The translations under genes were made by a program, and so were the position numbers. From Syntrophales bacterium (GTDB taxonomy: Bacteria > Desulfobacterota > Syntrophia > Syntrophales > JACQWR01): a stretch of DNA of 55,360 nt. Below are positions 1 through 20,188 of the stretch, in pieces (position 1 is the first letter of the stretch; each line of letters opens with the position of its first letter). The notes beneath the pieces were generated by a model. The model was not told the origin of the DNA and made no database searches. It worked only from the letters and a program-made list of their open reading frames with translations. The stretch is taken from NCBI GenBank assembly GCA_035283845.1, contig DATESZ010000264.1:1-55360 (forward strand), in the 5' to 3' direction.

Positions 1-141
1 CTATCCGCATACTTCCTCCTCTCCATTCAAAAATTATGCCACGTGCTAGGCAGAATTATCATATCTCAATATCACTAATTATGCCTATTGCGCTGTTGAA
101 CTCCACAAAAGACATGGTTCCTGCTTCATCCGCCGGCATTA
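1..141. repeat. Terminal direct repeat copy 1 (= 55220..55360); assembly overlap of a circular or circularly permuted genome
   Basis: nt 1-141 (ctatccgcatacttcc...catccgccggcatta) recur verbatim as the last 141 nt of the window. Confidence 0.95.
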
Positions 142-300
142 AAACACCACACGTCCGCAGGCTCTTTCCGAGGTTCCCCCGGTGGCTGAAATCAAGTTCT
201 GTTTCTGTAATCCGAATTTAAGGATATTCTGCGCTGCAAGATGGTCTCTGTCATGGGCTGCCCCGCACGTCTCACATGTCCACACGCGGTCAGATAGCGT
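95..300 (-). ncRNA. Candidate TnpB guide RNA (omega/reRNA) scaffold overlapping the tnpB 3' end
   Basis: Inference only. In characterised TnpB elements the RNA overlaps the 3' end of tnpB and stops at the element right end. Here the minus-strand sequence ...GTGGAGTTCAAC ends at nt 95. The 5' limit cannot be set by eye. Confidence 0.3.
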
Positions 301-1302
301 CAGCCGAGCATTCACCTTGCCACAGGTACACATACGGCTTGAAGGCTCAAAACGGCCTATCTCCAGATAGTTCTTGCCACTGTCTGCAAGTTTATACTGG
401 AGCATCCGGTAGAAATCTCCAAGCCCTAAATCAGAAATGCTCTGAGCAAGGCAGTGATTCTTCACCATGCCCTTGATGAAAAGGTCTTCACACACAACCG
501 TATCGAAGCGGTTGACTATCCCGCTTGTCGTCTTGTGTAAGAAATCCTTTCTCTGGTTTGCCACATGTTCATGATACCGCGCAAGTTTCAATACGGCTTT
601 GCGTCTATTGCCACTTCCTTTCACCTTCCGGCTTGCCCTACGCTGTAAAACCTTCAGCCTTCCGAGTGCCTGCTTCAGGTGCTTCGGATTTTCTATCTCC
701 GTTCCATCTGAAAGAACGGCAAACGTCTTGATGCCTGTGTCAATCCCGACCGCCGTTGCCTTGCGGATCGCCTTCTGCTTTGCCTTCTTGTCTTCTGCCT
801 CAACGGCAATACTCACGAAGAACTTGCCTGTTGCCGTCTTCTTAATCACTGCTGTCTTTATTGTTCCCTCGAATGTCCGGCTTATTCGTGTCGGTATCCA
901 TCCGAGCTTAGGAGCAAAGACCCTATTTTCATCAAACTTGACCTTTACATTTTGCGGAAAACCTACAGTATGCCGTTTGTCATGCTTGCGCTTGAACTTT
1001 GGGAATCCGTGCTTTTCCCTAAAGAAACGAGTGAAGGCTTTTTCCATATTCACAATAGACTGTTGGAGGCTCTGAGCAACAGACAGATTCAGCCATTCAT
1101 ATTCAGGTTTCTTCTTTATCTGCGTTAATTCTGCCATCAACGTGAAGGCACTCATGGTTTTTTTATCCTTCTGGTACGCCTCAATCCTTCGGGCAAGAGA
1201 CCAGTTATACACCCATCGGGCATTACCGAGCATCTGTTCAAGCTGCCCTGCCTGATGCTGGTTCGGATAGATTCTGTATTCGTAACCACGTATTTTTACC
1301 AT
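139..1302 (-). CDS. tnpB: TnpB RNA-guided endonuclease (IS605 OrfB family), 387 aa
   Basis: ORF track. RuvC triad motifs VGIDTG, VCEDL and DRDHLAAQNI, with a CxxC...CxxC zinc finger (CTCGK..CETCG) between the last two. Confidence 0.93.
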   Translation of the reverse strand: MVKIRGYEYRIYPNQHQAGQLEQMLGNARWVYNWSLARRIEAYQKDKKTMSAFTLMAELTQIKKKPEYEWLNLSVAQSLQQSIVNMEKAFTRFFREKHGFPKFKRKHDKRHTVGFPQNVKVKFDENRVFAPKLGWIPTRISRTFEGTIKTAVIKKTATGKFFVSIAVEAEDKKAKQKAIRKATAVGIDTGIKTFAVLSDGTEIENPKHLKQALGRLKVLQRRASRKVKGSGNRRKAVLKLARYHEHVANQRKDFLHKTTSGIVNRFDTVVCEDLFIKGMVKNHCLAQSISDLGLGDFYRMLQYKLADSGKNYLEIGRFEPSSRMCTCGKVNARLTLSDRVWTCETCGAAHDRDHLAAQNILKFGLQKQNLISATGGTSERACGRVVF

Positions 1303-1783: not shown

Positions 1784-2227
1784 ATGACGGATACGATTGT
1801 TGGAGCACTTATCGGGGTCGGCAGTGCTATTCTCGGCGCGATTGTTGGAGCTTGGATCGGTTATCGACTCTCCATTTCTTTGGTTCATGTCACTACTCGA
1901 CACAATGCTGCGTCCAATTTGAGGAAAGCTTTCTATGACGAACTTGCCATCTTGAATATGAGCAGCCTTAAAGATATTGATGCCTGTTCTATGCTTGAGG
2001 GTGCTTTCAAGAAACATATGATCGCTTTTTGGGAACTCAAATCCACCTTGCCGAAAAGCAAATGCGTTGCTTTCACCCAGGCATGGGAAGAGTATTATTG
2101 TTATCCAGGAACAGGGGACCATCATCTTGAACAATACGACACACTTACTGGAGGCTCGGAACAGCGTAAGGGGAAAAGAACGCTTGCAATTAAACGGATT
2201 GAACATATTCTCTCCTTTACTGAATAA
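1784..2227 (+). CDS. Hypothetical membrane-anchored protein, 147 aa; the only plus-strand gene in the array
   Basis: ORF track. N-terminal hydrophobic helix (IVGALIGVGSAILGAIVGAWIG). More protein-like than the antisense ORF 1664..2245. No clear SD. Confidence 0.5.
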   Translation: MTDTIVGALIGVGSAILGAIVGAWIGYRLSISLVHVTTRHNAASNLRKAFYDELAILNMSSLKDIDACSMLEGAFKKHMIAFWELKSTLPKSKCVAFTQAWEEYYCYPGTGDHHLEQYDTLTGGSEQRKGKRTLAIKRIEHILSFTE

Positions 2228-2580: not shown

Positions 2581-2581
2581 A

Positions 2582-2809: not shown

Positions 2810-3283
<474 letters not shown>

Positions 3284-3302
3284 CTAACTCCTTAAAATAA
3301 AA

Positions 3303-3362
3303 GCATAACAATTAGTTGCAGCGGACAGGCTAATCGCCGCGCCGCTGACCTTTGCGTTAGCT
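3303..3362 (+). repeat. attC-like folded repeat f (60 nt)
   Basis: GCATAAC-AATTA-GTT[G]CAGCGG[A]CAGGC...CCGCTGACC-TTTGC-GTTAGCT. The right core holds the stop of 3357..3545. Confidence 0.8.
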
Positions 3363-3545
3363 TCCGTAGCATCTTTTCCTTGGCCCTTTGCATCCCATAC
3401 ACGGGTTCTCTCCCTTATTTACAAGTCCCATCACAATCATTCCACCCAATAAACACGTTTTGGGAACGTACCCTTGTCCGATTGCCATTTGCAGATTAAT
3501 ATCGTCGCTGTCTGCTTCTATTTGACTAAAATAATGTGGTTTCAT
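3357..3545 (-). CDS. Hypothetical cassette protein, 62 aa
   Basis: Internal ATG of ORF 3357..3575 preceded by AGGAGAG. Confidence 0.55.
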   Translation of the reverse strand: MKPHYFSQIEADSDDINLQMAIGQGYVPKTCLLGGMIVMGLVNKGENPCMGCKGPRKRCYGS

Positions 3546-3566
3546 TCGATCTCTCCTTTCAAAAAT

Positions 3567-3649
3567 AAAGAACAATTCAACCCCGACCGGAATTACGTCC
3601 GGTGCGTTTCAGCCAAATCCGTGGCCAGCGGGTTATCTCTGCGTTATAT
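3567..3649 (+). repeat. attC-like folded repeat g (83 nt)
   Basis: AAAGAAC-AATTC-AAC[C]CCG-ACCGGaattacgtCCGGT...CGGGTT-ATCTCTGC-GTTATAT. Confidence 0.75.
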
Positions 3650-3654
3650 CCCGA

Positions 3655-3873
3655 TCATTTAAAGTACCGCAAGAAGCAATCGTAGCAGCATTCCTTGTCT
3701 TCATAAATACCATCAAGGCCAAGAATTACATGTTTACCGCACTTGAAGCACTTCCCCGTTAGTGGCAACGGTTCCGTCCCGACATTTGAGAACATTGCAT
3801 TAAAGTGGTCGGATATTCTTAACCTTTCTGCCTTTCCTACTTCCGACTCTTCCCATTGTCCTTGTGTTGGCAT
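3655..3873 (-). CDS. Hypothetical zinc-ribbon protein, 72 aa
   Basis: ORF track. CFKCGKH...CCYDCF cysteine pairs. AGGAGG SD. Confidence 0.6.
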   Translation of the reverse strand: MPTQGQWEESEVGKAERLRISDHFNAMFSNVGTEPLPLTGKCFKCGKHVILGLDGIYEDKECCYDCFLRYFK

Positions 3874-3896
3874 ATTGAATTCCTCCTAAAATACTG

Positions 3897-3982
3897 ATTT
3901 AACCAGTCACTACAGCGAACGGGGATCACACGCTGCGGCTTCCATCATGCCCGTGGCCCCGCCGCTGACCTTAGCGTTAGCA
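3897..3982 (+). repeat. attC-like folded repeat h (86 nt)
   Basis: ATTTAAC-CAGTC-ACT[A]CAGCGa[A]CGGGG...CCCCGCCGCTGACC-TTAGC-GTTAGCA. The left core fits RYYYAAC exactly. The right core holds the stop of 3977..4219. Confidence 0.8.
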
Positions 3983-4219
3983 TTTAGGACATGAAACTCG
4001 TTTGTTGTACGTTTGCCAGCCCATAAATGTCTTGATGCTTTGCCAAGGGTGATGTTCTAATTTCTTAATAAGTTCCACATTACATCTTTGGCATTTAGTA
4101 TGAAAATTAAGGCCATCATAAAAACATTCACCAACAATATGACCAAGGGAAAAACATAAAAGAATGCTAACAATTTTATCCAGCGGACGGGTAATTTCGT
4201 CCTGTGGTTTTTCATTCAT
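3977..4219 (-). CDS. Hypothetical Cys-rich protein, 80 aa, with a repeat-encoded N-terminal leader
   Basis: ORF track. The only start codon and SD (GGAGG) lie inside repeat i. The first 17 codons (MNEKPQDEITRPLDKIV) are shared with 10081..10608. Confidence 0.5.
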   Translation of the reverse strand: MNEKPQDEITRPLDKIVSILLCFSLGHIVGECFYDGLNFHTKCQRCNVELIKKLEHHPWQSIKTFMGWQTYNKRVSCPKC

Positions 4220-4254
4220 GTTCTACCTCCCCGCCGATGATAACGGCGTTATAT
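4165..4254 (+). repeat. attC-like folded repeat i (90 nt)
   Basis: TGCTAAC-AATTT-TAT[C]CAGCGG[A]CGGG...CCCGCCGATGATA-ACGGC-GTTATAT. nt 4168..4224 are identical to 10557..10613 in repeat o. Confidence 0.75.
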
Positions 4255-4497
4255 TCTGATACACCTTACTGCCGTCTCCTGCCCCAACGGGAACTCAAAG
4301 CACGATGACCACTTAGTGCAGCATCTCCTCGTATGCGGAACTGAATGTAGACATGTGTATCCCGCCATTTTGAAACATTTGTCAGCGTTGATACACCTTA
4401 CATCGGGCTTTAGTTTAAACCTCCTCCCTTTTTTTATTACAACGGCTTCCCCGATTTCTCCTTTTTCACCCGCAACATAATTCCTGATATTCCCCAT
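4249..4497 (-). CDS. Hypothetical cassette protein, 82 aa
   Basis: Internal ATG of ORF 4249..4557 preceded by GGAGGGG. The stop lies in the right core of repeat i. Confidence 0.5.
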   Translation of the reverse strand: MGNIRNYVAGEKGEIGEAVVIKKGRRFKLKPDVRCINADKCFKMAGYTCLHSVPHTRRCCTKWSSCFEFPLGQETAVRCIRI

Positions 4498-4513
4498 AAC
4501 CCCTCCAAAAACC

Positions 4514-4599
4514 AGATGACAATTAAATGAAGGCGACGGGAAGTTACTCCGTCGCATTCAGACACGCTCACCGTCCCGCGCCTTATTACTGCGTTAGCA
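4514..4599 (+). repeat. attC-like folded repeat j (86 nt)
   Basis: AGATGAC-AATTA-AAT[G]AAGGCG[A]CGGGA...TCCCGCGCCTTATT-ACTGC-GTTAGCA. Same plan as b and e, with compensatory changes. Confidence 0.75.
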
Positions 4600-4953
4600 T
4601 CACCACTTGATTAATAAACCCCAAAATTCCGACTCGTGCGTCTTTTCAAACCACACTCCCATATTTGCAAAACAAGAAAACCCATCTGCGTGGGCCAGCG
4701 TTTCTTGTTCTTCTGCCGTGAGCCATCTTCCTGCCAGGCATACGCCTCTCCAGTTAAGCGTGATCTCCTGCACTGATTTACAAACGCACTCTCCGATTTT
4801 ACGACACGCCTTCGTTCTGAGGCCGGTATAGAGGTAGAGTTTATCCCCCGGTTTTGGGTTCCTCCCGTCCCGCCGTTTCGCCCGGATCGTTTGTGTTTTT
4901 AACCCGGCTTCAACCAATGGCGCAAATTGCTTTTTAAATCCTAATAATGGCAT
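4600..4953 (-). CDS. ASCH-domain-like protein, 117 aa
   Basis: ORF track. N-terminal GFKKQFAPLVEAGLKTQTIR...PGDKLYLY resembles the ASCH beta-barrel signature (from memory). G-rich SD. Confidence 0.55.
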   Translation of the reverse strand: MPLLGFKKQFAPLVEAGLKTQTIRAKRRDGRNPKPGDKLYLYTGLRTKACRKIGECVCKSVQEITLNWRGVCLAGRWLTAEEQETLAHADGFSCFANMGVWFEKTHESEFWGLLIKW

Positions 4954-4983
4954 CTCTCCCCCCTATGCAAAAGATAATAAAAA

Positions 4984-5046
4984 TGCTAACAAATCGCTCC
5001 AGCGGAGTGCCAAAGGACCGGCACCCGCTGACCTTTGGCGTTATGA
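4984..5046 (+). repeat. attC-like folded repeat k (63 nt)
   Basis: TGCTAAC-AAATC-GCT[C]CAGCGG[A]GTGCC-aaaggacc-GGCACCCGCTGACC-TTTGGC-GTTATGA. The right core holds the stop of 5041..5208. Confidence 0.8.
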
Positions 5047-5208
5047 TTCATCATCTAATGGACAATCCCCCGGCATACAACAGGCATGCTGCCTCTGTAT
5101 ATCCCCTCTCACCAAGAGCAAGCTGCATTCCCCATCAAGATTCTGCCGGGAGGGAAGAAAACAAGGGCACATGCCGCAACTTGTTATTTTATCAGGCAAC
5201 TTTTTCAT
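5041..5208 (-). CDS. Hypothetical Cys-rich miniprotein, 55 aa (below ORF-track cutoff)
   Basis: Hand translation: MKKLPDKITSCGMCPCFLPSRQNLDGECSLLLVRGDIQRQHACCMPGDCPLDDES. GGAGGAG SD 3 nt before the ATG at 5208. Confidence 0.45.
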   Translation of the reverse strand: MKKLPDKITSCGMCPCFLPSRQNLDGECSLLLVRGDIQRQHACCMPGDCPLDDES

Positions 5209-5227
5209 AACTCCTCCATAAATAAAG

Positions 5228-5287
5228 ACATAACAATGAAATCAAGGCGACGGATTTTACTCCGCCTGCTCTTTCGCTGATTCCTGA
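5228..5287 (+). repeat. Degenerate attC-like repeat l (left half only)
   Basis: ACATAAC-AATGA-AATCAAGGCGACGGA...CGCTGATT. No GTTA right core before the exonuclease gene. Confidence 0.4.
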
Positions 5288-5309
5288 TACAGGTGGCTAT
5301 AAAACGCTC

Positions 5310-5939
5310 TCAGGAAGTCATCATTTTTTCGTAAATTGCCATTGTCGTTTTGATGTCTCTCAAACAGTGGTTATCTATCGCCTCGTAGTCCCCCATTAAC
5401 CAGAGTTGGTAAATCTCCGATCCATTGCCGCCGCCGTGCTGAACGCCCAAGAAATCAGCACACGAGGCCAAAGAAACATAGTCTTTAAAATCTGCCGCCC
5501 AGACCTTCATCAAGTCCGTCGTTAGATGCGGGTTGCCCCTCGGTATGGCGTTCCTTATTCCCGTGAGGCCATATTTTATGGCTTTTCTCCATATCCACGG
5601 CATGTCAAACGTGATGATATTCCATCCCACCAAGTGCAGCGGTTCATGCCATGCGCCTGCTATTTTATCAAAAGCCCCGGCTAAAAGCTCCATCGTTTCC
5701 CGTTCGTTTGCCCCTCGGATGATTTGGGCTTCCCCGCCTTCAAGGCAGAGGCCAACACAGAAGATTTCCCCCTTCATGCTGTTAAGGCTCTGCTTTTGGT
5801 ATTCATTCTCGACATTGGCTTCTTGATATGCCCTGATGGTTTCCGGCTTGGACATTGTGCCGGGAGCTTTTATATCTTCAGGGAGTGGCCTGGTCGGGCC
5901 GGGGGTAGATTCTATGTCCAGGAATAATTTTGGTATCAT
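5310..5939 (-). CDS. DnaQ-like 3'-5' exonuclease (PolB-exonuclease-related family), 209 aa
   Basis: ORF track. LFLDIESTP Exo I motif. Start overlaps the ERF stop (ATGA). Confidence 0.7.
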   Translation of the reverse strand: MIPKLFLDIESTPGPTRPLPEDIKAPGTMSKPETIRAYQEANVENEYQKQSLNSMKGEIFCVGLCLEGGEAQIIRGANERETMELLAGAFDKIAGAWHEPLHLVGWNIITFDMPWIWRKAIKYGLTGIRNAIPRGNPHLTTDLMKVWAADFKDYVSLASCADFLGVQHGGGNGSEIYQLWLMGDYEAIDNHCLRDIKTTMAIYEKMMTS

Positions 5940-6676
5940 GGTTGACCTCCGATATTATCCGGGACATCCTGCGGTTCTACGATGGTGATCGACACAAGAT
6001 TGTTTCCGTATTGACCTTTGACAAACGCGACCTTGACGGGAACGATATTTGCCGCCGCGCCGGATGCAATGAGGCTTAGGTCTTTCTTGAAAGTCTGATA
6101 AATATTCCCGTCTTCGTCTGTTATCCCGTACTTGACATACGGTTTACCCTTGTTCGCTCCGGCGGTTGACACCCCCGGCTTTTCCTCTACTGACTTGATG
6201 TAAACGGTTTTGGTTTCCTCGTTTCCGGCAAGGGCTGTTTTTTCGGCAGGCGGCTTTGTCGTTTTATTGTCGCCCACTCCTGCGCTCGCCGCGTTTCCGT
6301 CATCATCCTCCGGTGCTATTCCCACAATGGATTGTAGAGAATAACGCCGCAGGTAGGTTATGCAGCTTCCGATGGCCTGCGGGTCGCTTTTAACCGGCCT
6401 TGCCACAAGCCGCCCTCGCATCCACTCGCCGGAAGAATGGCAAAGCGTAGTATCTATGCAGACCATCTCCGGGTGTTCTGGTAGGAAATCTGCCGTTTGC
6501 ACAACGCTTAGTCCGTTGTTGGCAAGCGGCTTCCGGCACGCATCCCATACAGACGCAAGGTCGGCGTAGGAGCTTTTAAAGAAGGGGTTTTGGCTATCCT
6601 TTACGGCCCCCTCCATTATCCCCTGTGCTTTCGCCAGGGCGTCTGCTAATTTCCCTATTGTCTCTGATTGGCTCAT
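5936..6676 (-). CDS. ERF-family single-strand annealing recombinase, 246 aa
   Basis: Internal ATG with AAGGAG SD. IGKLADALAKAQ...NPFFKSSYADLASVWDACR is the remembered ERF N-terminal signature. Confidence 0.8.
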   Translation of the reverse strand: MSQSETIGKLADALAKAQGIMEGAVKDSQNPFFKSSYADLASVWDACRKPLANNGLSVVQTADFLPEHPEMVCIDTTLCHSSGEWMRGRLVARPVKSDPQAIGSCITYLRRYSLQSIVGIAPEDDDGNAASAGVGDNKTTKPPAEKTALAGNEETKTVYIKSVEEKPGVSTAGANKGKPYVKYGITDEDGNIYQTFKKDLSLIASGAAANIVPVKVAFVKGQYGNNLVSITIVEPQDVPDNIGGQP

Positions 6677-6713
6677 CGAAAAAACTCCTTGCTGATTTTG
6701 TAGGCACCTTCTT

Positions 6714-7040
6714 TCATAATTTATTCCCCGCAAAGGCATTTAGTATTGATCTCATCGGTTCTGTCACATGGGCGTTTAATTTTCCCGGCTCCTCTCCCGC
6801 TTCCCACGGCTCGGAAGTGAGGCACATGAAGTTTACCCCGGCCGCTAAGATTTCGTACCGCGTGGGCCACGCCTCATCGTGGAAGGTTTTTCTGCAATCT
6901 CCCCGAGAAAACAGGCGGAACAATGCCTCGCTATCTAGGTGGATACTGAAGCTGCTCACCCCAATACACCCCTCGGCGTGCAGCTCCGCATATTTTTTCG
7001 TTAACTCCAATGCCTTCGATATAAACTCTTGTTTTCCCAT
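6714..7040 (-). CDS. Hypothetical protein, 108 aa
   Basis: ORF track. Contains the 34-nt segment (6789..6822, LTSEPWEAGEE) duplicated at 9757..9790. Confidence 0.6.
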   Translation of the reverse strand: MGKQEFISKALELTKKYAELHAEGCIGVSSFSIHLDSEALFRLFSRGDCRKTFHDEAWPTRYEILAAGVNFMCLTSEPWEAGEEPGKLNAHVTEPMRSILNAFAGNKL

Positions 7041-7060
7041 TTTCCGCCTCCCTCGTTAAA

Positions 7061-7748
7061 TTATTCCCCCGCCTTTGAGTAGTCGCTCAACAACAAGCTC
7101 GGCTGGAATGGCTTGCTCAGATGGGCGCCCTTTTTTAAATTATCTATTGCCCACAGTGGTTGTAAATTCTTTAGCGCCCACGCCCGCCTGAAATCTAAGT
7201 CATCCGGTGTCTCGAAGTTGAAGGCAGACAGCGGGATCTTATGATCAATATGCCATTCTCCCCTGTTTTCCCAAGTCATACCCGGCTTGAACTTCTTTGC
7301 CAGGTGCTTCATTAATTGATCTAAGGTAAAATCCACTAGCGACTCCCAGCGCCGACCGTTTTTGCTCCCGTCAAGCGATTCCCAGATAGAGCGGCGCATC
7401 CCTTCGTTAAGACTCCCTTTCGGGGTTGGCATTGGCCCATGCTTGGCAGCGTCCCCTGTGCGCTTCGGGGTTACGACTGTAGTATTCTTTGTGTCTTGCC
7501 AGGGTAATGTCGCGATTTTGCGTATAATATTTTTTGCGATGCCGACTCGCGGCGGCCGCGTGGTTTTTCCAGTAAACCCTTGACCAGATATTTATGCAAT
7601 CCTTGCATCTATTGCCGCTCCATGAGTAAAAATCACAGATTTTCTTTGTCCCTTTGCATTTTGAGCATCTTTTTTCTATCCCAATAGAAGGACTTGCATT
7701 TAGGACACCTTCGCACGTCTGAGCTTCTAGCAACCCACTCATGATCAC
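7061..7748 (-). pseudogene. HNH endonuclease split by a frameshift (ORFs 7407..7748 and 7061..7432)
   Basis: The N-terminal Cys-rich, Y/N-repeat part and the C-terminal WHIDHKIP...NLQPLWAIDNLKKG HNH part lie in different frames and overlap by 26 nt. In related phage HNH genes (from memory) these form one protein. Confidence 0.65.
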
Positions 7749-7816
7749 ACCTCTTGCATATGATTTTGGTAATTTTGATTTTCATGGGTTATATGTATGC
7801 TCCATAAGTAAGATTG

Positions 7817-8101
7817 TCAAGAGTTATTATAGTCGCATCCGTGAGCGGCGATCCCCTTTTCCTTCCGCCCCATCACCATGCAGTCTTCGGGGTGATATTC
7901 TGAGCGTTCCAGCTCGGCGCTCTGGCTGTCCAGTTTAAGCTCTTGCGAGTGGAAGAAATCGCCCGCAAAAACGATCAGATCAACGGCTTCCGCCTCTGCC
8001 GTTTCAACGATAAAGTTCAGGCACTTTTCGCATTCCTTAATATCTTTGTCCCGTAGGTGGGCGTCGGCAAAATGGAGTAGCTTCATGATATTATTACCCA
8101 C
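7817..8101 (-). pseudogene. Truncated calcineurin-like/SbcD-type metallophosphoesterase fused to a duplicated 25-aa tail
   Basis: MKLLHFADAHL and GDFFH motifs only. Homology ends after ~60 aa and continues into ERSEYHPEDCMVMGRKEKGIAAHGC, which is shared with 10081..10608. Confidence 0.55.
7835..7910. repeat. 76-bp dispersed direct repeat, copy 1 (copy 2 at 10105..10180)
   Basis: gcatccgtgagcggcgatcccc...ggggtgatattc[t/g]gagcgttcc, 75/76 identical. Confidence 0.9.
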
Positions 8102-8340
8102 CCTTCCTTTAACCCGTAAACAGGGCCTCTAAGAATGTAGTTTATGGGCATGTGCCAGATGTACCCCGTATATTCAAGAGGGGCTCCGGCTTTCATTTCC
8201 TCGCCGCTATATTTCGTCTCTTCGAGCTGTAGGTCATCCCCCACCTTAAAGCCTCTATCATCAAAGCGTATTTCAAACCGCTTGCCCATATCTGCCGTTG
8301 CCCGGAAGGCTTCTGTATCTGTCTTTAATATGTGTTTCAT
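8083..8340 (-). CDS. DUF3850/ASCH-like protein, 85 aa
   Basis: MKHILKTDTEAFRA...KRFEIRFDDRGFKVGD...YILRG...GLKEGWVIIS matches the remembered DUF3850 pattern. GGAGGTG SD. Confidence 0.7.
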   Translation of the reverse strand: MKHILKTDTEAFRATADMGKRFEIRFDDRGFKVGDDLQLEETKYSGEEMKAGAPLEYTGYIWHMPINYILRGPVYGLKEGWVIIS

Positions 8341-8344
8341 GGCT

Positions 8345-8932
8345 TCACCTCCACCCTTCTGCTCGGTTTCCAGGGATAAAAAATAACTCCCAAAAGGCCG
8401 TAAGTCTGATCTTCTCGTAATCGGCCCTGGCGGGCTTCTCGATCTTCTCGTAATCGGCCCTGGCAGGATTCTCGATCTTCTCGTAATCGGCCCTGGCAGG
8501 ATTCCTGATCTTCTCGTAATCGGCCCTGGCAGGATTCTCGATCTTCTCGTAATCGGCCCTGGCAGGATTCTCGATCTTCTCGTAATCGGCCCAGGCGGAC
8601 TTCCTGATCTTCTCGTAATCGGCCAAGGCGGAGGGAGATAAAAGCCCAAGCGGAATCCCCATCAGATAAAACTTTCCTGTCTTTATCGCCTCGGCAATCA
8701 CCACGGGAAATTTGCTAGGGGAAGAAAAATCTGTGCACTCTTTTTTCACCCCCTTGCCGTCCAACTCATAAAAGAAATCAATCGCTCCGTGTCCGACAAA
8801 ATCATCGGGCGTGGTGTGCTGCTGTAATTTTTTCCCTCGTTTAGAATTATAAATATCGTCATAGGTGAGGAAAAGGATTTCTGTGGCGCCGTCTGTTCGT
8901 CGCACCTCTTTCCAGCTGATAAATACGCACAT
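8345..8932 (-). CDS. Hypothetical protein with C-terminal ADYEKIENPAR tandem repeats, 195 aa
   Basis: ORF track. GGAGGG SD. About seven 11-aa repeats. Confidence 0.6.
   Translation of the reverse strand: MCVFISWKEVRRTDGATEILFLTYDDIYNSKRGKKLQQHTTPDDFVGHGAIDFFYELDGKGVKKECTDFSSPSKFPVVIAEAIKTGKFYLMGIPLGLLSPSALADYEKIRKSAWADYEKIENPARADYEKIENPARADYEKIRNPARADYEKIENPARADYEKIEKPARADYEKIRLTAFWELFFIPGNRAEGWR
8408..8630. repeat. 33-bp tandem repeat, ~6.7 copies
   Basis: Unit gatcttctcgtaatcggccctggcaggattctc starts at 8408, 8441, 8474, 8507, 8540, 8573 and 8606. Confidence 0.9.
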
Positions 8933-8935
8933 GGC

Positions 8936-9271
8936 TCATCCCTCCATAGCAAAAGGGACGTCCTGCCCGCCCGCAATGTCCTGGACGCGGAAAGGCTCCC
9001 CGGTTGATGTCCTAATCATCCCCTCAACGCTTGCCATCATGCGGCCGGATACGTTAGGGTCGCGCACAATCTGAGCGGGAAGCCAGTCCACCTTTGCCGC
9101 CTGAGCAAGCCGGTCGAGCCCTTGCTTGTGGATTCTTACCGGCTCCACGATCAGGGCGAACCCCGGCGCGATATCCGCGGGGCTGGTTCCCGTGGGGATG
9201 AGCATATGGCAGCCCTTGGACTCAAACTCCTTTAACCTCTGGTACGCTGTTTTCTGTGATTGATCTGTCAT
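8936..9271 (-). CDS. Hypothetical protein, 111 aa
   Basis: ORF track. GGGAGG SD. Confidence 0.65.
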   Translation of the reverse strand: MTDQSQKTAYQRLKEFESKGCHMLIPTGTSPADIAPGFALIVEPVRIHKQGLDRLAQAAKVDWLPAQIVRDPNVSGRMMASVEGMIRTSTGEPFRVQDIAGGQDVPFAMEG

Positions 9272-9273
9272 GA

Positions 9274-9426
9274 TAATAACCTCCCACCGGTTAGGTTGGG
9301 GAAGGCCCCGCTGCCTGCCCTAGAGCAGACAACGGGTGGGGATGGCCTTCCGTATTAGTCTTTGCGATCTCCCATTAACCGCGCTGGTCTTATGTAATGC
9401 CGCGTGCGGCATATCTCTCGTTATCT
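9274..9426 (+). repeat. Long composite attC-like repeat m (~153 nt)
   Basis: TAATAAC...CGGTTA/TAACCG, GGAAGGCC/GGCCTTCC and ATGCCGC/GCGGCAT stems...ATCTCTC-GTTATCT. The right core holds the stop of 9421..9573. Confidence 0.5.
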
Positions 9427-9573
9427 ACCATTACAAACGGATTCTTTCTGGGGACGTATTTTTAGAAGACGATCCACTGCTTCTGGTGTTAGGTACACTT
9501 CCTCCCCACTACAATCATAACATCCATCGAACTCGATATGTAAGTCTCCGTCTAAATCCCATTCTATTTTCAT
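9421..9573 (-). CDS. Hypothetical cassette protein, 50 aa
   Basis: Internal ATG of ORF 9421..9621 with GAGGA 8 nt upstream. Confidence 0.45.
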   Translation of the reverse strand: MKIEWDLDGDLHIEFDGCYDCSGEEVYLTPEAVDRLLKIRPQKESVCNGR

Positions 9574-9603
9574 GTTCTCATCCTCAAATCTCCTAAAATA
9601 ACA

Positions 9604-9669
9604 AGATAACAAAGCGCTCAAGACGGACGTGGCATACAGCCGCCACGCCGCTTAGATTGAGCGTTCCCT
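9604..9669 (+). repeat. attC-like folded repeat n (66 nt)
   Basis: AGATAAC-AAAGC-GCTCAAgaCGG[A]CGTGGC-atacagcc-GCCACGCCGcttagaTTGAGC-GTTCCCT. Confidence 0.65.
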
Positions 9670-9744
9670 ACCACCAATAACCAAATGCTCCGTTATTCCT
9701 ATATGCAACTTCGCGCCCTCCGCCGTTTCATGCGCTCTTCTAAA

Positions 9745-9921
9745 CTAAACATGGGTCTCCTCTCCCGCTTCCCACGGCTCGGAAGTGAGGAACGCCCGGA
9801 CGCCATCGATAAGCTCGTCCAAGTTGTTCGTGCTGATAACATTGGTATGGCCCGAATAGGCGTTGTACCTGCCGAAATTGTTATCCCGGCCCCCGTCGCT
9901 TATGGTTAGATTTTTAGTCAT
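9745..9921 (-). CDS. Hypothetical protein, 58 aa
   Basis: Internal ATG overlapping the stop of 9914..10081 (ATGACTAA). The C-terminus carries the duplicated LTSEPWEAGEE segment. Confidence 0.5.
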   Translation of the reverse strand: MTKNLTISDGGRDNNFGRYNAYSGHTNVISTNNLDELIDGVRAFLTSEPWEAGEETHV

Positions 9922-10081
9922 GGGTTTTCCCCAGCTTTTTAGTGGGCAACCTGCCCTTTCCGTCAATCTTACATTTGGGACATTTGCGCCGCCGTATTGC
10001 ATGCATGAGCGGATACTCTTCGCGACAAGCATAATTTCGGCACCGTACCCACTTTATATCAAAACAAGACACATACCACAT
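9914..10081 (-). CDS. Hypothetical zinc-ribbon protein, 55 aa
   Basis: Internal ATG overlapping the stop of 10081..10608 (TAATG). CRNYAC...CPKC. Confidence 0.5.
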   Translation of the reverse strand: MWYVSCFDIKWVRCRNYACREEYPLMHAIRRRKCPKCKIDGKGRLPTKKLGKTHD

Positions 10082-10608
10082 TATTCCCCTACCTCCTTGT
10101 ACTGGCATCCGTGAGCGGCGATCCCCTTTTCCTTCCGCCCCATCACCATGCAGTCTTCGGGGTGATATTCGGAGCGTTCCGGTTCGTAGTCATTCGCCCA
10201 CTTAAACGGTATTTCGTGTAGCTCTTTACCGCAATAACAGCAGAACCCCATGCCATTTTCAGAGGGTGTCCCCTCGATTATGCAATGGAGTTGACCGCAT
10301 TCTGTTGACCAGCTCCCCTCTTCGTCCGCTGTCCAGGAGCACCCCTGCCCCGGCCTATTTTCACCCATTTTAACCAGAGGTTCCTCTGTGTACTCTTTTT
10401 TTACGTAAAGCATGCCTGTCTTGTGATCTTCAATACACCAAGACTTTTTTGCTATATGCTTAGCTATTATCATTAAGGTTCTGATGTTATTGCTCACCCC
10501 CTGCCAGTGCCAATAAACAGAGTATGGCCCCTTGGTACGAAGCGAATAACGGGGCATAACAATTTTATCCAGCGGACGGGTAATTTCGTCCTGTGGTTTT
10601 TCATTCAT
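10081..10608 (-). CDS. Hypothetical protein, 175 aa, with a repeat-encoded leader and the duplicated C-terminal tail
   Basis: The ATG at 10608 with GGAAGGAAG SD lies inside repeat o. An alternative ATG lies in the GTTATG core (MPRYSL...). Confidence 0.55.
   Translation of the reverse strand: MNEKPQDEITRPLDKIVMPRYSLRTKGPYSVYWHWQGVSNNIRTLMIIAKHIAKKSWCIEDHKTGMLYVKKEYTEEPLVKMGENRPGQGCSWTADEEGSWSTECGQLHCIIEGTPSENGMGFCCYCGKELHEIPFKWANDYEPERSEYHPEDCMVMGRKEKGIAAHGCQYKEVGE
10105..10180. repeat. 76-bp dispersed direct repeat, copy 2
   Basis: 75/76 identical to 7835..7910. Confidence 0.9.
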
Positions 10609-10643
10609 GTTCTTCCTTCCCGCCGCTGACCTTTGCGTTATAT
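10554..10643 (+). repeat. attC-like folded repeat o (90 nt)
   Basis: GCATAAC-AATTT-TAT[C]CAGCGG[A]CGGG...CCCGCCGCTGACC-TTTGC-GTTATAT. Confidence 0.8.
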
Positions 10644-10858
10644 TACTGATGACCATCTAAACCTTCGTTCCAAGTATTAACCCCAGGATTTTCTACATCT
10701 CCGTTATTTCTTATATCGGCAAATGACCAATCTTCATCCCCGTCGACGTGTAGGGAAAAAGAAATTTCACCGTCTTTTGGTAATTCAGGATGATTGGTTT
10801 CCCGAAGTATTTTTTGGACTGCATCAGCTATTTCTCGTTTTTGTCTTACTGAAAACAT
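10643..10858 (-). CDS. Hypothetical acidic protein, 71 aa
   Basis: ORF track. GGGAGGTG SD. Confidence 0.65.
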   Translation of the reverse strand: MFSVRQKREIADAVQKILRETNHPELPKDGEISFSLHVDGDEDWSFADIRNNGDVENPGVNTWNEGLDGHQ

Positions 10859-10879
10859 GCGCCACCTCCCTTATAAAAA

Positions 10880-10942
10880 ATATAACCAGTCACTAAAGCG
10901 GCGTGAGGCTGTTTGCCACGCCGCTTACCTTGGGCGTTATGT
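10880..10942 (+). repeat. attC-like folded repeat p (63 nt)
   Basis: ATATAAC-CAGTC-ACT[A]AAGCGGCGTG-aggctgtttgc-CACGCCGCTTACC-TTGGGC-GTTATGT. Confidence 0.8.
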
Positions 10943-10953
10943 GACAAAATCCC

Positions 10954-11112
10954 TCACTCATATTCAGTGCAATCATGGTTCTCGTGTTTCGCGCAATATT
11001 CACAAAAACCTTCGCGCCCGCAAATATCGCAAGTGCTTGTGTCATCCGAGCCATCAGGGTTTTTTATCTGCTCGCAACATACATGACAAAAACCTCTATC
11101 TTCGTCTCTCAT
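10954..11112 (-). CDS. Hypothetical Cys-rich miniprotein, 52 aa
   Basis: Internal ATG of ORF 10954..11136 with GAGGGA SD. CHVCC...CDICG...CEYC. Confidence 0.5.
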   Translation of the reverse strand: MRDEDRGFCHVCCEQIKNPDGSDDTSTCDICGREGFCEYCAKHENHDCTEYE

Positions 11113-11132
11113 ATTTCCCTCTATAAATAAAA

Positions 11133-11221
11133 GCATAACCAGTCACTGAACCCGCCCGGGGAATTCCGGTCTGGGTTTTCCGTCAAGGCTTAGGCCCCGG
11201 CGGGTTATCTCTACGTTATAT
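11133..11221 (+). repeat. attC-like folded repeat q (89 nt)
   Basis: GCATAAC-CAGTC-ACTG-AACCCGCC[C]GGGG...CCCCGGCGGGTT-ATCTCTAC-GTTATAT. Confidence 0.75.
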
Positions 11222-11458
11222 TTAAAATTCATCAACCAGTTCATCAAATGGGCGTCCCGTGCGTATTGCTTCGGCGGATAGGTGGAGAAAAACGCGTGGG
11301 CTAAATTTACGAACCTTTTCATATCTTTCATTGCCCTTACGGATATCGTGCAGAACCATATAATCTAACGCCTTCAGGTGGTCAGCGTGGAGGACAACCG
11401 CATCGTCACGGTGTAGTTCCCATGCCTCGTATGTTTTAGCATTATATGGGTTACTCAT
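11222..11458 (-). CDS. Hypothetical protein, 78 aa
   Basis: ORF track. GGAGGA SD. Preferred over the overlapping ORF 11143..11331. Confidence 0.65.
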   Translation of the reverse strand: MSNPYNAKTYEAWELHRDDAVVLHADHLKALDYMVLHDIRKGNERYEKVRKFSPRVFLHLSAEAIRTGRPFDELVDEF

Positions 11459-11534
11459 TCCAGTCCTCCATTAAAAGAATAAGATCATCTTTTGTATATG
11501 GTTGTTTTTTACTTGGTTTTCTCCAAAAAACAGA

Positions 11535-11583
11535 AAACAACTTAATCCAGCCCGTGGCCCGGCGGGTTATCCTTGCGCTATAC
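11535..11583 (+). repeat. Short attC-like repeat r (49 nt)
   Basis: AAACAAC-TTAAT-CC-AGCCCG-tggcccgg-CGGGTT-ATCCTTGC-GCTATAC. The GCTA variant of the right core supplies the TAG stop of 11578..11763. Confidence 0.5.
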
Positions 11584-11763
11584 AGCACAAAATAAAATAC
11601 AATCCTTAGCGTCGGATTGGCTAATCTCTATCAATCCATACGATCCATCACCCTCGTCAAGCCACCCTTCACCTGAGCAAATAAAAATCCTCTGATCGCG
11701 GGTTTTAACGGCCTCATATTCCGTTCGATGTTTACAATCGCTGCATTTTGGTGTGGTTTTCAT
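11578..11763 (-). CDS. Hypothetical Cys-containing protein, 61 aa
   Basis: Internal ATG overlapping the stop of 11760..11918 (ATGA). Confidence 0.55.
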   Translation of the reverse strand: MKTTPKCSDCKHRTEYEAVKTRDQRIFICSGEGWLDEGDGSYGLIEISQSDAKDCILFCAV

Positions 11764-11918
11764 TTTCTCGTCCCCGGCATCTTGATCCAAACGATCTCTT
11801 CAAGGCAGTCGCAGCTCCCCTGCTGCCAGCGCCACAACGGCACGAGGAAGCCTGGCGTGTGCATCAGCGGTAATGTCTCTTTTTTCCTGCCTACCCACTC
11901 GATAAATTGTTTCAACAT
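11760..11918 (-). CDS. Hypothetical protein, 52 aa (first gene of the early-left operon)
   Basis: Internal ATG of ORF 11760..12098 with AGGGGGG SD. The upstream part of that ORF reads through repeat-like leader sequence. Confidence 0.45.
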   Translation of the reverse strand: MLKQFIEWVGRKKETLPLMHTPGFLVPLWRWQQGSCDCLEEIVWIKMPGTRK

Positions 11919-12065
11919 TTTGACCCCCCTAATTGCTTTTTGCCCACCTACCGCGTCCCGAAGGCACATTGCCCAGGTGAGCTCATCTGCCGACTGCTCG
12001 GCTACCCTTCCGTTTCCCGTAGGATCGGTTGGGCGGGTGTTACTTTTGTCTCTTTTGTGACTGCT

Positions 12066-12090
12066 CCGCCAGCTTATCCGCACGTTATAC
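12066..12090 (+). repeat. Right-half attC-like sequence s in the early-left leader
   Basis: CCGCCAGCTT-ATCCGCAC-GTTATAC resembles the right arms of d, g and q. No convincing left arm found. Confidence 0.3.
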
Positions 12091-12106
12091 TTTTTCATTC
12101 GTCCGC

Positions 12107-12135
12107 ATCATACACCCGTCAAATGTGTTTGTCAA
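12107..12135 (-). promoter_or_regulatory. Early-left promoter (PL-like)
   Basis: Minus strand TTGACA (12135..12130), 17 nt, TATGAT (12112..12107). Confidence 0.6.
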
Positions 12136-12177
12136 GCATTATTTTCATTTTATTATTGCTAATCGTAAAAATAATAA

Positions 12178-12205
12178 TTGACATATATATTGACTTGTGT
12201 ATAAT
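12178..12205 (+). promoter_or_regulatory. Early-right promoter (PR-like)
   Basis: TTGACA (12178..12183), 16 nt, TATAAT (12200..12205), 30 nt upstream of the HTH gene. Confidence 0.65.
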
Positions 12206-12235
12206 GGGCATAACTGGAAGAAAGGAGGAGTGAAT

Positions 12236-12442
12236 ATGGGTAATGCTTTTGAGGGGTTTACCACAGTTCAGAAGGTTAAGGCATTCATGGCTGCAAACGA
12301 CATGAATATGCAAGCGTTAGCTGATTATCTAAAAATTTCCATTGGAACGGTAAGCAACAGATTTGAGAAAAACGACTGGACGGTACCTGAGCTTAAATTG
12401 TTGGCCGAAAGGTTCGGGACTACAATAGTAGACCTTATTTAA
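12236..12442 (+). CDS. Cro/CI-type helix-turn-helix regulator, 68 aa
   Basis: ATG with AAGGAGG SD. MQALADYLKISIGTVSNRF is a typical HTH. Confidence 0.75.
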   Translation: MGNAFEGFTTVQKVKAFMAANDMNMQALADYLKISIGTVSNRFEKNDWTVPELKLLAERFGTTIVDLI

Positions 12443-12454: not shown

Positions 12455-12802
12455 ATGCGAAAAGAAGTACGCGAACGCATCCTATTAAAATGCAAAGGGA
12501 AGTGCGTCGAATGCGGTGCTGTTGAACACCCTGAAGTAGATCATATCATCCCATTAGCCCGAGGCGGAAGGCATGATGAAGATAACTTCCAAATCCTCTG
12601 CAAAAAATGCAATCTCAAAAAGGGAAAAGGGATAGATTATTCTAAGTATGTTAAAATGGGTAAATCTCCAGAATACATAGAGGTTAACCAATCAATACTT
12701 GAAACTGATTTTTTCCGCCGAGGTTCTAAATTTGTAGCGATGCAATTAGAGTCGTGGCACAGACAAAACAATGCTCTTTTTGAGGTTAATAATGGCGGTT
12801 GA
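12455..12802 (+). CDS. HNH endonuclease, 115 aa
   Basis: ORF track. CVECG...EVDHIIPLARGG...NFQILCKKCNLKKG. Confidence 0.85.
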   Translation: MRKEVRERILLKCKGKCVECGAVEHPEVDHIIPLARGGRHDEDNFQILCKKCNLKKGKGIDYSKYVKMGKSPEYIEVNQSILETDFFRRGSKFVAMQLESWHRQNNALFEVNNGG

Positions 12803-19591: not shown

Positions 19592-20188
19592 ATGACCAAG
19601 CATCAGCAATCGCTTAACCACCCCCAGAAGGGGTCTCGGATAACCGTTGACCCTATTAGAAGTCTCGAAGACATAAACGAGATCAAGCTGCTACTGAGGA
19701 ATGATCCGCTTTATCTTTGTCTTTTCACTCTAGGGATAAACACAGGATTGCGTGCTTCGGACTTACTCCATATTACGGCGGGGCAGGTCAAGGATTTATC
19801 CCCGATGGACGAGTTGTGTTTGAACAAGCGTAAGACCGGCAATGGTCGGAGGATGAATTTAAACTCGGCCTGTGTTGATGCGATACATTCTCTTTTGGCT
19901 AGCAGGGGGTATCTTGACGAAGAAGTCTTGTTTATTGGGCAGCGGGGGCCGTTGACTGTTTCGTCTGTGAATCGGTTGTGGAAAAGGTGGGCGAGGCAAT
20001 GTGGGATTCGGGGGAACTTCGGCAGTCATTCTGCCAGAAAGACTTTTGGCTATCATCAGCGCGCGACCTTTGGGGTGTGCCTGCCCGAGCTGATGCGGGT
20101 GTTTGGGCATTCAAGTGAACGGCAAACCCTTGCCTACATAGGCATCCAGGATGAGACGATAAAGAACATTTACGCAAACACACTATAA
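19592..20188 (+). CDS. Tyrosine recombinase, catalytic domain only, 198 aa
   Basis: ATG with GGAG SD. Catalytic motifs TGLRASDL (R), HSARKTF (HxxR), VFGHSS (H) and LAYIG (Y). No N-terminal core-binding domain of normal length. Confidence 0.85.
   Translation: MTKHQQSLNHPQKGSRITVDPIRSLEDINEIKLLLRNDPLYLCLFTLGINTGLRASDLLHITAGQVKDLSPMDELCLNKRKTGNGRRMNLNSACVDAIHSLLASRGYLDEEVLFIGQRGPLTVSSVNRLWKRWARQCGIRGNFGSHSARKTFGYHQRATFGVCLPELMRVFGHSSERQTLAYIGIQDETIKNIYANTL

Follow-up and report, generated by a model that had tools for sequence, protein, structure and literature searches.

Integrons are seen as bacterial gene-capture platforms, and to our knowledge reports of attC sites in phages have so far been limited to small clusters and captured host fragments. 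In the phage represented by the window (the whole 55,360-nt stretch analyzed here), most of one early operon is built from attC-bounded, phage-expressed cassettes. Fifteen clear sites and several decayed ones, all co-oriented, form two arrays flanking an exonuclease/ERF core, and these sites make up the bounds of most of the leftward early operon.

CALINs (clusters of attC sites lacking an integron integrase, in which at least two sites lie within 4 kb of each other and no intI is close by) have been described in phages before (Qi et al. 2023). The published virulent or uncharacterized phages have CALINs of 2-4 sites (PMC9892861) versus 15 clear sites in the window, and their CALINs are unlike the two arrays described here, which occupy most of the leftward early operon and bracket the recombination genes. 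Pseudoalteromonas phage H101 resembles the window phage in having co-oriented attC between small genes of unknown function and no IntI, and its genes also lie on the attC bottom strand (the same inverted layout), a polarity on which we found no remark in the available text of Qi et al. 2023 (PMC9892861). Two H101 attC sites were recombined by IntI1 in the experiments of that study (PMC9892861); by indirect analogy, the bottom strand of the window sites, once folded, may likewise be a substrate for an integron integrase. Tetrasphaera phage TJE1, unlike the window phage, has the usual polarity. The Vibrio anguillarum prophage Va_90-11-286_p16, with 16 attC sites, is similar to the window phage in number, but the paper identifies its array as a captured fragment of the host chromosomal integron, excised between two chromosomal attC (PMC9892861), whereas in the window phage the array is an early operon native to the phage, and arrays occupy the same position in mosaic relatives.

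Among bacterial systems, sedentary chromosomal arrays (e.g., the Vibrio cholerae superintegron) and class 1 cassettes have the same hairpin to the nucleotide, the elements in common being a 7-nt R box, a 5-nt spacer, 3 bp, a bulge and a stem. As in chromosomal arrays, attC sites within one array are similar while the intervening genes are unrelated. Unlike chromosomal and class 1 integrons, the window phage has no intI, attI or Pc, its genes are on the bottom strand with a phage promoter at the far end, and the third position of the extended core is A/T in ~60% of sites where the consensus has Y/R. Repeated intergenic stem-loops around small accessory genes are also a likeness to the PeSLs of T4-type phages, which Arbiol et al. 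reportedly described in 2010 as a promoter plus stem-loop repeats flanking small accessory genes, with modular shuffling proposed. PeSLs act through homologous recombination and carry an early promoter, whereas the window sites have no promoter motif and match attC models instead. A PeSL identity was rejected: positions 1-12400 contain 17 promoter-like sites versus 16.7 expected from shuffled sequence, and none recurs inside the repeats.

attC sites and the operon they divide

The identity of the repeats was assessed with two covariance models, R1, trained solely on 14 window repeats (site n was left out of training), and R2, trained solely on 15 bacterial attC sites. R1 recovers all the cassette attC sites of four class 1 integron loci (23-53 bits; arr-3 is weak, at 11.6 bits), including those of aadA2 (52.9 bits), aadB (38.9), blaVIM-2 (36.5), aac(6')-29a (27.4), aac(6')-29b (23.4) and aacA4 (23.3), with no further match at E<0.01 across the 60 kb of these loci. 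The same model has zero matches in ~2 Mb of controls (883 kb of ERF-phage DNA plus 1.16 Mb of other viral DNA), and by its search attC-type sites are absent from 80 other ERF-phage loci. R2, in turn, matches 15 sites in the 55-kb window (19-57 bits), all on the + strand and confined to 1367-5048 or 9604-11223; the window reverse strand yields at most 13.6 bits, and the rest of the 55 kb has no match at E<1. Because these reciprocal tests agree, the intergenic repeats are, judged by sequence, integron-type attC recombination sites and not chance resemblances. An earlier note on this DNA had read the repeats as recombination-type sites that box genes and had suggested a covariance-model comparison; the reciprocal models uphold that reading, which is in essence the idea of integron cassettes, and extend it to bacterial attC, an identity that the note had missed. 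The sites and associated features are as follows.

1367-5048, + strand, block 1, eleven attC sites (R1 45-83 bits; R2 19-57 bits)
1367-1427, + strand, attC a
1619-1707, + strand, attC b
2240-2300, + strand, attC c
2493-2582, + strand, attC d
2810-2898, + strand, attC e
3303-3364, + strand, attC f
3563-3651, + strand, attC g
3897-3984, + strand, attC h
4165-4256, + strand, attC i
4514-4601, + strand, attC j
4984-5048, + strand, attC k
5229-5290, + strand, degenerate site l, adjoining the core (member of repeat family D2)
5310-9271, - strand, repeat-free core: exonuclease, ERF annealing protein, metallophosphatase fragment, DUF3850 and unknown genes (Pfam matches)
9396-9427, + strand, right-end remnant in the region of site m: hairpin ATGCCGCGTGCGGCAT, ATCTCTC, GTTATCT (read from sequence)
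9604-9671, + strand, attC n (R1 25.9 bits, E 5e-5; R2 24.8 bits; DNA fold z-score -3.8 to -4.6)
9676-9697, + strand, bare core pair AATAAC-N10-GTTATT (R1 6.2 bits, E 6.4)
10554-10645, + strand, attC o (R1 80 bits; R2 46.5 bits; repeat family D9)
10880-10944, + strand, attC p (R1 42.2 bits; R2 46.3 bits; DNA fold z-score -3.1 to -3.5)
11133-11223, + strand, attC q (R1 66 bits; R2 38.7 bits)
11528-11585, + strand, degenerate attC r (R1 11.7 bits, E 0.13 in 7 kb; missed by R2)
12066-12090, + strand, right half of site s: L' arm, spacer, GTTATAC (motif TTATC-N4-5-CGTTAT)
9421-11919, - strand, block 2 cassette genes on the attC bottom strand (ORF list, gene calls in identical contigs, orientation test): 9421-9573, 9745-9921, 9914-10081, 10081-10608, 10643-10858, 10954-11112, 11222-11458, 11578-11763, 11760-11919
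12107-12135, - strand, leftward early promoter of the whole cassette operon (TTGACA-17-TATGAT, 11/12 matches)

Each site is an imperfect inverted repeat that forms a hairpin as single-stranded DNA. In the R box, xTAAC pairs with GTTAx; the central spacer is unpaired (5 nt against 5-7 nt); and the L box comprises 3 bp, a bulged base, 6 bp, a second bulged base and ~4 bp, followed by a variable loop. Loops vary and core-to-core distances are 53-85 nt; for attC sites a length of ~50-150 nt is expected, and the window sites have the hairpin, spacer, L box and variable ends by which such sites are recognized. Covariation backs the hairpin, since 84% of cells are paired versus 33-48% in slid registers and 10 of the 18 hairpin pairs are altered on both sides. 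Another recognized attC feature is the conservation of the triplets 5'-AAC-3' and 5'-GTT-3' where the R'' and R' boxes pair (PMC5027507). All clear window sites but one keep both triplets (14 of 15; the exception, j, has GAC), and in distinct related viral sites they are nearly invariant (116-119 of 119). The extended consensus RYYYAAC/GTTRRRY is matched only in part, which weighs against the attC reading: the typical left core is GCATAAC and the typical right core GTTATAT, and at the third position counted from the triplet ~60% of sites carry A-T in place of Y-R and still pair. For the family as a whole, the extrahelical bases (a G16-equivalent G and a T near L'', on the bottom strand) are present, the first bulge being a top-strand C (bottom-strand G) in 91/119 viral sites (76%) and the second a top-strand A (bottom-strand T) in 116/119 (97%), as in canonical attC. 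In the window itself, the second bottom-strand bulge is T in 13 sites, and the first is C in 6/14, T in 3/14 and G in just 5/14, the last a point counted against the attC reading.

Block 2 contains fewer sites than the seven or eight drawn in the earlier note. Sites n, o, p and q are confirmed at the positions given there and share the block 1 plan, whereas r is degenerate and m and s are partial. Site n has an unusual right core (GTTCCC; its top strand is the window + strand), the variable loop of site o contains the ribosome-binding site and ATG of the downstream gene, site p is of the short type with a perfect 10-bp L stem, and site q pairs a CAGTC-type left spacer with an ATCTCT-type right spacer. 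In site r the right core reads GCTA in place of GTTA and the left arm is decayed. Neither model found a left arm for site s, which lies just downstream of the leftward transcript start; its motif has four occurrences (d, g, q and s), all on the + strand, versus 0.03 expected. Site m as drawn was rejected: its region (9274-9427) has no R1 or R2 match, and only the right end (ATATCTCTCGTTATCT, 9409-9427) fits the family. The supposed left TAAC of this site is probably coincidental because it falls between the ribosome-binding site and ATG of the gene at 8936-9271. The TTA of the remnant core is the stop codon of the gene at 9421-9573. The bare core pair, which the note had taken for a possible remnant or "empty" site, is marginal at 6.2 bits; its pattern occurs once versus 0.03 expected, it looks like a k-type left arm joined straight to a right core, and it may be an attC with its center deleted.

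Between the blocks, neither model has a match at E<1 from 5048 to 9604 (likewise elsewhere in the 55 kb), in agreement with the repeat-free core described previously. Site l, at the core's edge, has a conserved left arm and a decayed right core (CTTTCGCTGA) and is matched by neither R1 nor R2. Pfam confirms the exonuclease, ERF and DUF3850 genes as core contents, but the HNH gene formerly placed among them lies at 12455-12802 on the + strand. The contrast drawn earlier between boxed accessory minigenes and an unboxed recombination core holds, as attC sites surround the former and none occurs in the core. The accessory genes of the leftward early operon are split by the sites into cassettes of one gene each, occasionally several.

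A tblastn search of the window with IntI1 found no integron integrase (E>0.5), and no attI site was identified; both results weigh against host-integrase exchange. The only tyrosine recombinase in the window, at 19592-20188, was rejected as an IntI: it is a 198-aa catalytic domain that scores 56 bits against the NCBIfam XerA/integron-integrase model (cut-off 220), has no IntI extra domain by sequence inspection, and is of a type unlinked to attC arrays elsewhere. A complete integron, in which intI with its extra domain lies next to attI and Pc, is therefore not what the window contains. Because the phage encodes no integron integrase, its attC clusters are CALINs, with 11 sites in 1367-5048 and 4-5 in 9604-11585, and they count as two because the inter-block gap is 4.56 kb.

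Mosaicism and possible routes of cassette exchange

At 91% identity, sites i and o are distinguished by a ~10-nt patch in the right arm, and sites d and g have 60 identical nt in common while their left arms differ. The mixed left-end and right-end types reported in the earlier note are real, and parts of sites have indeed been exchanged, although the junctions are inside the hairpin, away from the TAAC/GTTA cores at which exchange had been envisaged, and do not match the integrase crossover (G|TT). Such internal junctions point to an origin of the hybrids by homologous recombination or gene conversion among sites rather than by core crossover. Three mosaic relatives (L103, L113 and L147), which share late genes of ~91% identity, have a different 4-site array with unrelated genes at the same genome position, so that different cassettes lie between homologous attC sites. 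Long contigs of the window phage are carried by >50 assemblies; among the 24 near-identical copies examined, gene order was the same, with no reshuffling, and the eight aligned over the arrays were 99.9-100% identical, an invariance that counts against cassette exchange.

Since the phage has no integron integrase, site-specific cassette movement would need a host-supplied enzyme. Excision, insertion or exchange of cassettes would be carried out by an integron integrase of the infected host, which would cut the attC bottom strand at TAA|C; this is the window - strand and the mRNA-sense strand, and many gene stop codons coincide with the TAA of TAA|C. Additional mixing inside sites would occur by homologous recombination, plausibly driven by the ERF and exonuclease that the phage itself encodes. 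The most likely account is that a host integron integrase exchanges the cassettes and homologous recombination shuffles them further. The identity and polarity of the sites, the absence of IntI and the mosaicism are shown directly, and from these we infer that host IntI recombination takes place on the window phage. Overall, we have good confidence that these are co-oriented integron attC cassettes in a phage, which would be moved by host IntI and mixed further by homology.

Alternatively, the sites could be nothing more than portable homology, with shared stretches of 60-90 nt letting the phage ERF and exonuclease shuffle modules, much as has been suggested for PeSLs, and the attC likeness reflecting only ancestry. 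The mosaic junctions inside sites (i/o and d/g), the arrays' position flanking the ERF and exonuclease genes, and the presence of attC arrays with an ERF gene in both the window and contig 3300020171_000022 (L136) are consistent with this possible but somewhat unlikely explanation. However, it leaves unexplained the compensatory changes that keep the hairpin, the near-invariant AAC/GTT and bulged bases in 119 divergent sites, and the strict co-orientation of sites, and the 80 other ERF-phage loci have no such sites. Portable homology is best seen as a process additional to host-integrase exchange rather than as an alternative to it.

If host integrases do act on these sites, they would provide a site-specific route to phage mosaicism and to the exchange of early genes (possibly anti-defense genes), and would physically connect the genomes of phages with the cassette arrays of bacteria in a direct way. 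A broader and more speculative proposal, which we regard as rather doubtful, is that phages, in this case from aquifer groundwater, keep their own reverse-polarity cassette pool apart from the bacterial one, with host integrases or an unrecognized phage recombinase serving as a dedicated means of swapping early accessory or anti-host genes among phages, as opposed to accidental carriage of bacterial integron fragments.

Gene polarity relative to attC

In clear window cassettes, 9 of 10 genes are on the attC bottom strand and one is on the same strand as its site (orientation test); in other viral loci the bottom strand accounts for 41 of 42 clear cassettes, again with one same-strand case. The polarity given by R1 was checked on IntI-bearing integrons (class 1 arrays and a Smithella MAG integron, L185), in which genes are on the attC top strand. 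The polarity in the phage is the reverse of that of bacterial integron cassettes, where a top-strand gene lies upstream of its own attC and is read from Pc; the bottom-strand genes of the window therefore depend for expression on the phage promoter at 12135-12107 instead of an integron Pc. Under the speculative proposal of a cassette pool kept by phages, this placement of the genes would make the recombinogenic strand the early operon's non-template strand and, probably, its lagging-strand template. Dozens of viral contigs show the inverted layout too, as does H101, an isolated phage. After capture at a bacterial attI, cassettes of this polarity would not be expressed, an expectation counted against the integron reading.

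A near-fixed polarity relative to transcription (the 41/42 cases above) is also what might be seen if the hairpins acted as RNA elements in the polycistronic early mRNA, controlling its processing, stability or translation; the T7 early operon, with RNase III sites between genes, is a model for such elements. All sites are placed after a stop codon and ahead of the ribosome-binding site that follows, and the structure covaries, as this explanation would have it, but the conserved parts are attC DNA features (AAC/GTT cores, spacer geometry and bulged bases), there is no U tract or terminator likeness, and no Rfam family matches at E<=1. Moreover, G-T pairs are equally rare on the top and bottom strands (one non-pairing column set aside), so there is no RNA-strand signature. 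We consider an RNA-only function quite unlikely, although the hairpins could also act in RNA alongside their role in DNA. Intrinsic terminators were rejected as candidates: the main stems on the - strand run into sequences such as GATAAAATTGTTAT or TAGTGACTGG, with no U tract, and terminator-type matches are weak only and fall on inner loop hairpins. It is highly improbable that the repeats are miniature mobile hairpins (IS200/IS605-related palindrome-associated elements spread with the neighboring TnpB element) since, although a TnpB gene adjoins site a and another is near the L136 arrays and inter-copy homology begins and ends at site ends, the window has no TnpA transposase, L103, L113 and L147 have arrays without TnpB, the sites match bacterial attC and not IS ends, and the TnpB flanks are matched by neither R1 nor R2.

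For host-integrase exchange of attC cassettes, the exceptional gene of the window is informative.

1784-2227, + strand, the sole cassette gene with bacterial polarity (attC top strand; antisense to the operon)

The + strand ORF is protein-like, while the - strand ORF is junk-like despite a good ribosome-binding site. attC c begins 13 nt after the gene and is co-oriented with all the other sites, and an antisense cassette with a co-oriented attC fits polarity-preserving, site-specific insertion.

Identity of the repeats as integron attC sites

The intergenic repeats share a single plan on the + strand: xTAAC and a 5-nt spacer (AATTx or CAGTC) are followed by a left arm in which one bulged base separates 3 nt from a GC-rich stem of 6 bp, then a variable middle, then a right arm made of the complementary stem, 2-3 nt, a 5-7-nt spacer with a GC end, and GTTAx. 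In a 14-copy alignment, the proposed hairpin paired 84% of cells, versus 33-48% in registers slid by 1-3 columns, and both sides had changed in 10 of the 18 pairs. Nivina et al. 2016 (PMC5027507) define attC sites by an R box, an unpaired central spacer, extrahelical bases in the L box and a terminal structure that varies, and these repeats show the same architecture.

Covariance models were applied reciprocally: R1, built from the 14 window copies, was run on four plasmid class 1 integrons (60 kb), and R2, trained solely on 15 bacterial attC sites of class 1 cassettes and metagenome-assembled bacterial genomes (MAGs), was run on the window. Although it contains phage sequence only, R1 found every cassette attC of the four integrons, on the cassette coding strand, and the rest of the 60 kb gave no R1 match with E<0.01.

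R1 scores on class 1 integron cassettes
aadA2, 52.9 bits
aadB, 38.9 bits
blaVIM-2, 36.5 bits
aac(6')-29a, 27.4 bits
aac(6')-29b, 23.4 bits
aacA4, 23.3 bits
arr-3, 11.6 bits (weak)

Conversely, R2 recovered 15 + strand sites in the window, scoring 19-57 bits; its scores on the reverse strand did not exceed 13.6 bits, and there was no other match with E<1. R1 matches in the window were likewise restricted to the + strand and confined to 1367-5048 and 9604-11585. The covariance-model check proposed in the earlier note placed the sites on one strand with both models, and the repeat-free core between the two blocks stands. AAC and GTT were nearly invariant in a set of 119 distinct related sites taken from viral contigs, and the bulged top-strand C and A correspond to bottom-strand G (76%) and T (97%), as in canonical attC. 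Judged by architecture and by the reciprocal matches, the window repeats are integron attC sites. An exact attC 18-mer from the window was also present in attC sites of Methylococcaceae, Smithella, Verrucomicrobiota, Nitrospirae and Deltaproteobacteria MAGs; host assignment by this 18-mer was rejected, as it is spread over many phyla.

The sites may also act at the RNA level, and their constant orientation with respect to transcription would fit this; however, the conserved features are those of a DNA recombination site. Wobble pairs compared between both strands did not tell RNA folding from DNA folding. A likeness to the T4 promoter/stem-loop cassettes (PeSL) failed for want of a promoter motif of that kind, and terminators (no U tract follows the hairpin), known RNA families (no Rfam match) and TnpB-linked elements (the sites are not tied to TnpB) were rejected. 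Nor are attC-type sites a general trait of ERF phages: R1 had 0 matches in 883 kb of sequence flanking the ERF genes of other phages.

Block 2 and probable exchange between sites

The window spans one complete phage genome (~55.2 kb) with a terminal repeat (bases 1-141 recur at 55220-55360). Genes lie on the + strand from ~12.2 kb to 55.2 kb and on the - strand from 12.1 kb down to 139, the latter read from a near-consensus promoter that makes block 2 the promoter-proximal part of the operon.

12135-12107, - strand, leftward near-consensus promoter (11/12 matches)
12178-12205, + strand, divergent rightward near-consensus promoter (12/12 matches)
12197..12442, CI/Cro-like helix-turn-helix gene downstream of the rightward promoter
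12455..12802, + strand, HNH gene
28722-29617, + strand, group I intron in the late region (Rfam RF00028, 53.3 bits, E 9e-11)

The HNH gene, which the earlier note had placed in the core, lies outside it on the + strand. A 24-nt inverted repeat (12122-12145 / 12168-12191) overlaps both divergent promoters and looks like an operator. GC skew flips sign at ~12 kb; if this flip marks a replication origin, lagging-strand synthesis would use the attC bottom strand as its template, though GC skew in phages tracks transcription too, which weakens it as an origin marker.

Of the block 2 sites listed in the earlier note, n, o, p and q share the block 1 plan according to R1; o, p and q are training copies, while n, outside the training set, scored 25.9 bits. 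Site r was weak (11.7 bits). The pattern TTATC-N4-5-CGTTAT has four matches (d, g, q and s) versus 0.03 expected, which marks site s as a genuine right half. Site m (9274-9427) had no R1 match: its left TAAC sits between the ribosome-binding site and ATG of gene 8936..9271, and it fits the family at its right end only (ATATCTCTCGTTATCT). The stretch 9272-9430 nevertheless has a strong predicted fold (-52 to -59 kcal/mol for 161 nt) and contains GTCTTTGCGATC and ATCTCTCGTTAT, which resemble decayed right ends of two attC sites. The bare core pair at 9676-9697, previously suggested to be a remnant or 'empty' site, is marginal: its pattern matches once versus 0.03 expected, and it reaches 6.2 bits with R1. 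It resembles a right core joined to the left arm of site k.

Left-end and right-end types combine variably, as had been noted: spacer CAGTC is paired with ACCTT in h and p and with ATCTCT in q, and AATTT with ATAACGG in i and with ACCTTTG in o. Outside a ~10-nt patch, which breaks the 3-bp part of the L box of o, sites i and o are 91% identical. The pair d and g is identical over 60 nt and differs in the left arms. The i/o and d/g junctions fall inside the hairpin, which points to exchange by homologous recombination or gene conversion rather than crossover at G|TT; the neighbouring ERF and exonuclease could plausibly drive such within-site exchange. Two duplications (7827-7916 versus 10097-10186, 93%; 6789-6825 versus 9757-9793, 97%) link core genes to block 2 cassette genes and point to past recombination between core and array. 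Sites i (4166-4254) and o (10554-10645) also carry a ribosome-binding site and ATG inside the variable loop; because of this, the otherwise unrelated ORFs 3977..4219 and 10081..10608 have identical first 17 codons, encoded by the attC sites themselves.

Recombinases and cassette polarity

No IntI was found in the window by tblastn with IntI1; the two attC clusters, 4.56 kb apart, are therefore CALINs (attC clusters that lack an integrase). ORF 139..1302, a candidate integrase in an integron-like layout, was rejected since it encodes a TnpB nuclease.

139-1302 (flanks ~98-1366), - strand, TnpB-only IS200/IS605-type element (NCBIfam NF040570, 323 bits)
19592..20188, + strand, sole tyrosine recombinase of the window (198 aa), just upstream of the terminase genes

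The tyrosine recombinase is a bare catalytic domain of Xer type (Pfam Phage_integrase, 58.7 bits; nearest solved structure XerA 5hxy, E 1.6e-5), and sequence inspection found no IntI-specific insertion. It was rejected as the attC recombinase: its best 80 viral homologue loci (1.16 Mb) gave 0 R1 matches and included no array-bearing contig.

In IntI-carrying integrons (class 1 arrays and a Smithella MAG), genes lie on the model-called top strand, whereas in the window the gene strand is opposite to the attC top strand in 9 of 10 clear intervals. Other viral loci gave 41 opposite, 1 same and 23 ambiguous. The TAA of the - strand TAAC core often doubles as the stop codon of the gene upstream (at a, c, e, f, h, i and k); an integron integrase would make its bottom-strand cut at exactly this point. 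Cassette 1784..2227 (+) is antisense to the operon, with its attC co-oriented with the other sites; it probably has the usual bacterial polarity, as would be expected from polarity-preserving site-specific insertion.

Phage CALINs are already known, and in Qi et al. 2023 (PMC9892861) most such phages have 2-4 sites. In Tetrasphaera phage TJE1, a published phage CALIN, sites and genes share one strand, the usual polarity and unlike the window, while in Pseudoalteromonas phage H101 (KR534323, 71919-79976) four attC sites are opposite all annotated genes, as here. In the experiments of that paper, IntI1 recombined two H101 attC sites; in the parts of it consulted we found no remark on the polarity difference between H101 and TJE1. 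Relative to known phage CALINs, the present arrays are new in site number, in their integration into an early operon around recombination genes, and in systematically reversed cassette polarity.

Cassette content in related phages

Isolated phages searched by megablast had no match to the window, and cassette proteins had almost no matches in PHROGs and Pfam. IMG/VR, scanned for exact motifs and then with R1, yielded relatives with 121 sites in ~40 loci, in arrays of 3-10 sites; one contig (3300020171_000022) combines TnpB, ERF and 17 sites. Three relatives (L103, L113 and L147) have late genes ~91% identical to those of the window, and the corresponding position of their genomes is occupied by unrelated genes and four attC sites, the latter homologous to b/e and j. 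The same phage occurs in >50 assemblies as circular contigs of 55.3-55.5 kb, and the 24 near-identical copies examined have one gene order throughout, with no cassette rearrangement. Cassette content therefore varies between related phages, with no rearrangement seen within the clone. Only three distant pairs of cassettes were shared between arrays, too diverged to place crossover junctions. On the whole, the first observation was largely right and its interpretation close to the truth.

Eight copies aligned over the arrays were 99.9-100% identical and varied only in a 33-nt tandem repeat.

8373-8669, 33-nt tandem repeat (7-9 copies) within ORF 8345..8932

Phage copies that are otherwise 99.9% identical differ in the number of these repeat units, giving gene products of 162, 173 and 239 aa. 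The TnpB element, absent from L103, L113 and L147, is inserted between the late-gene end and attC site a and has its own promoter-like site (1338-1309). Its nearest named homologue (86% identical) is an annotated protein of a Candidatus Zambryskibacteria genome bin; groundwater phage-like contigs (L285-L290) contain further homologues, and a crude motif scan and inspection by eye indicated attC-like sites antisense to the genes of these contigs.
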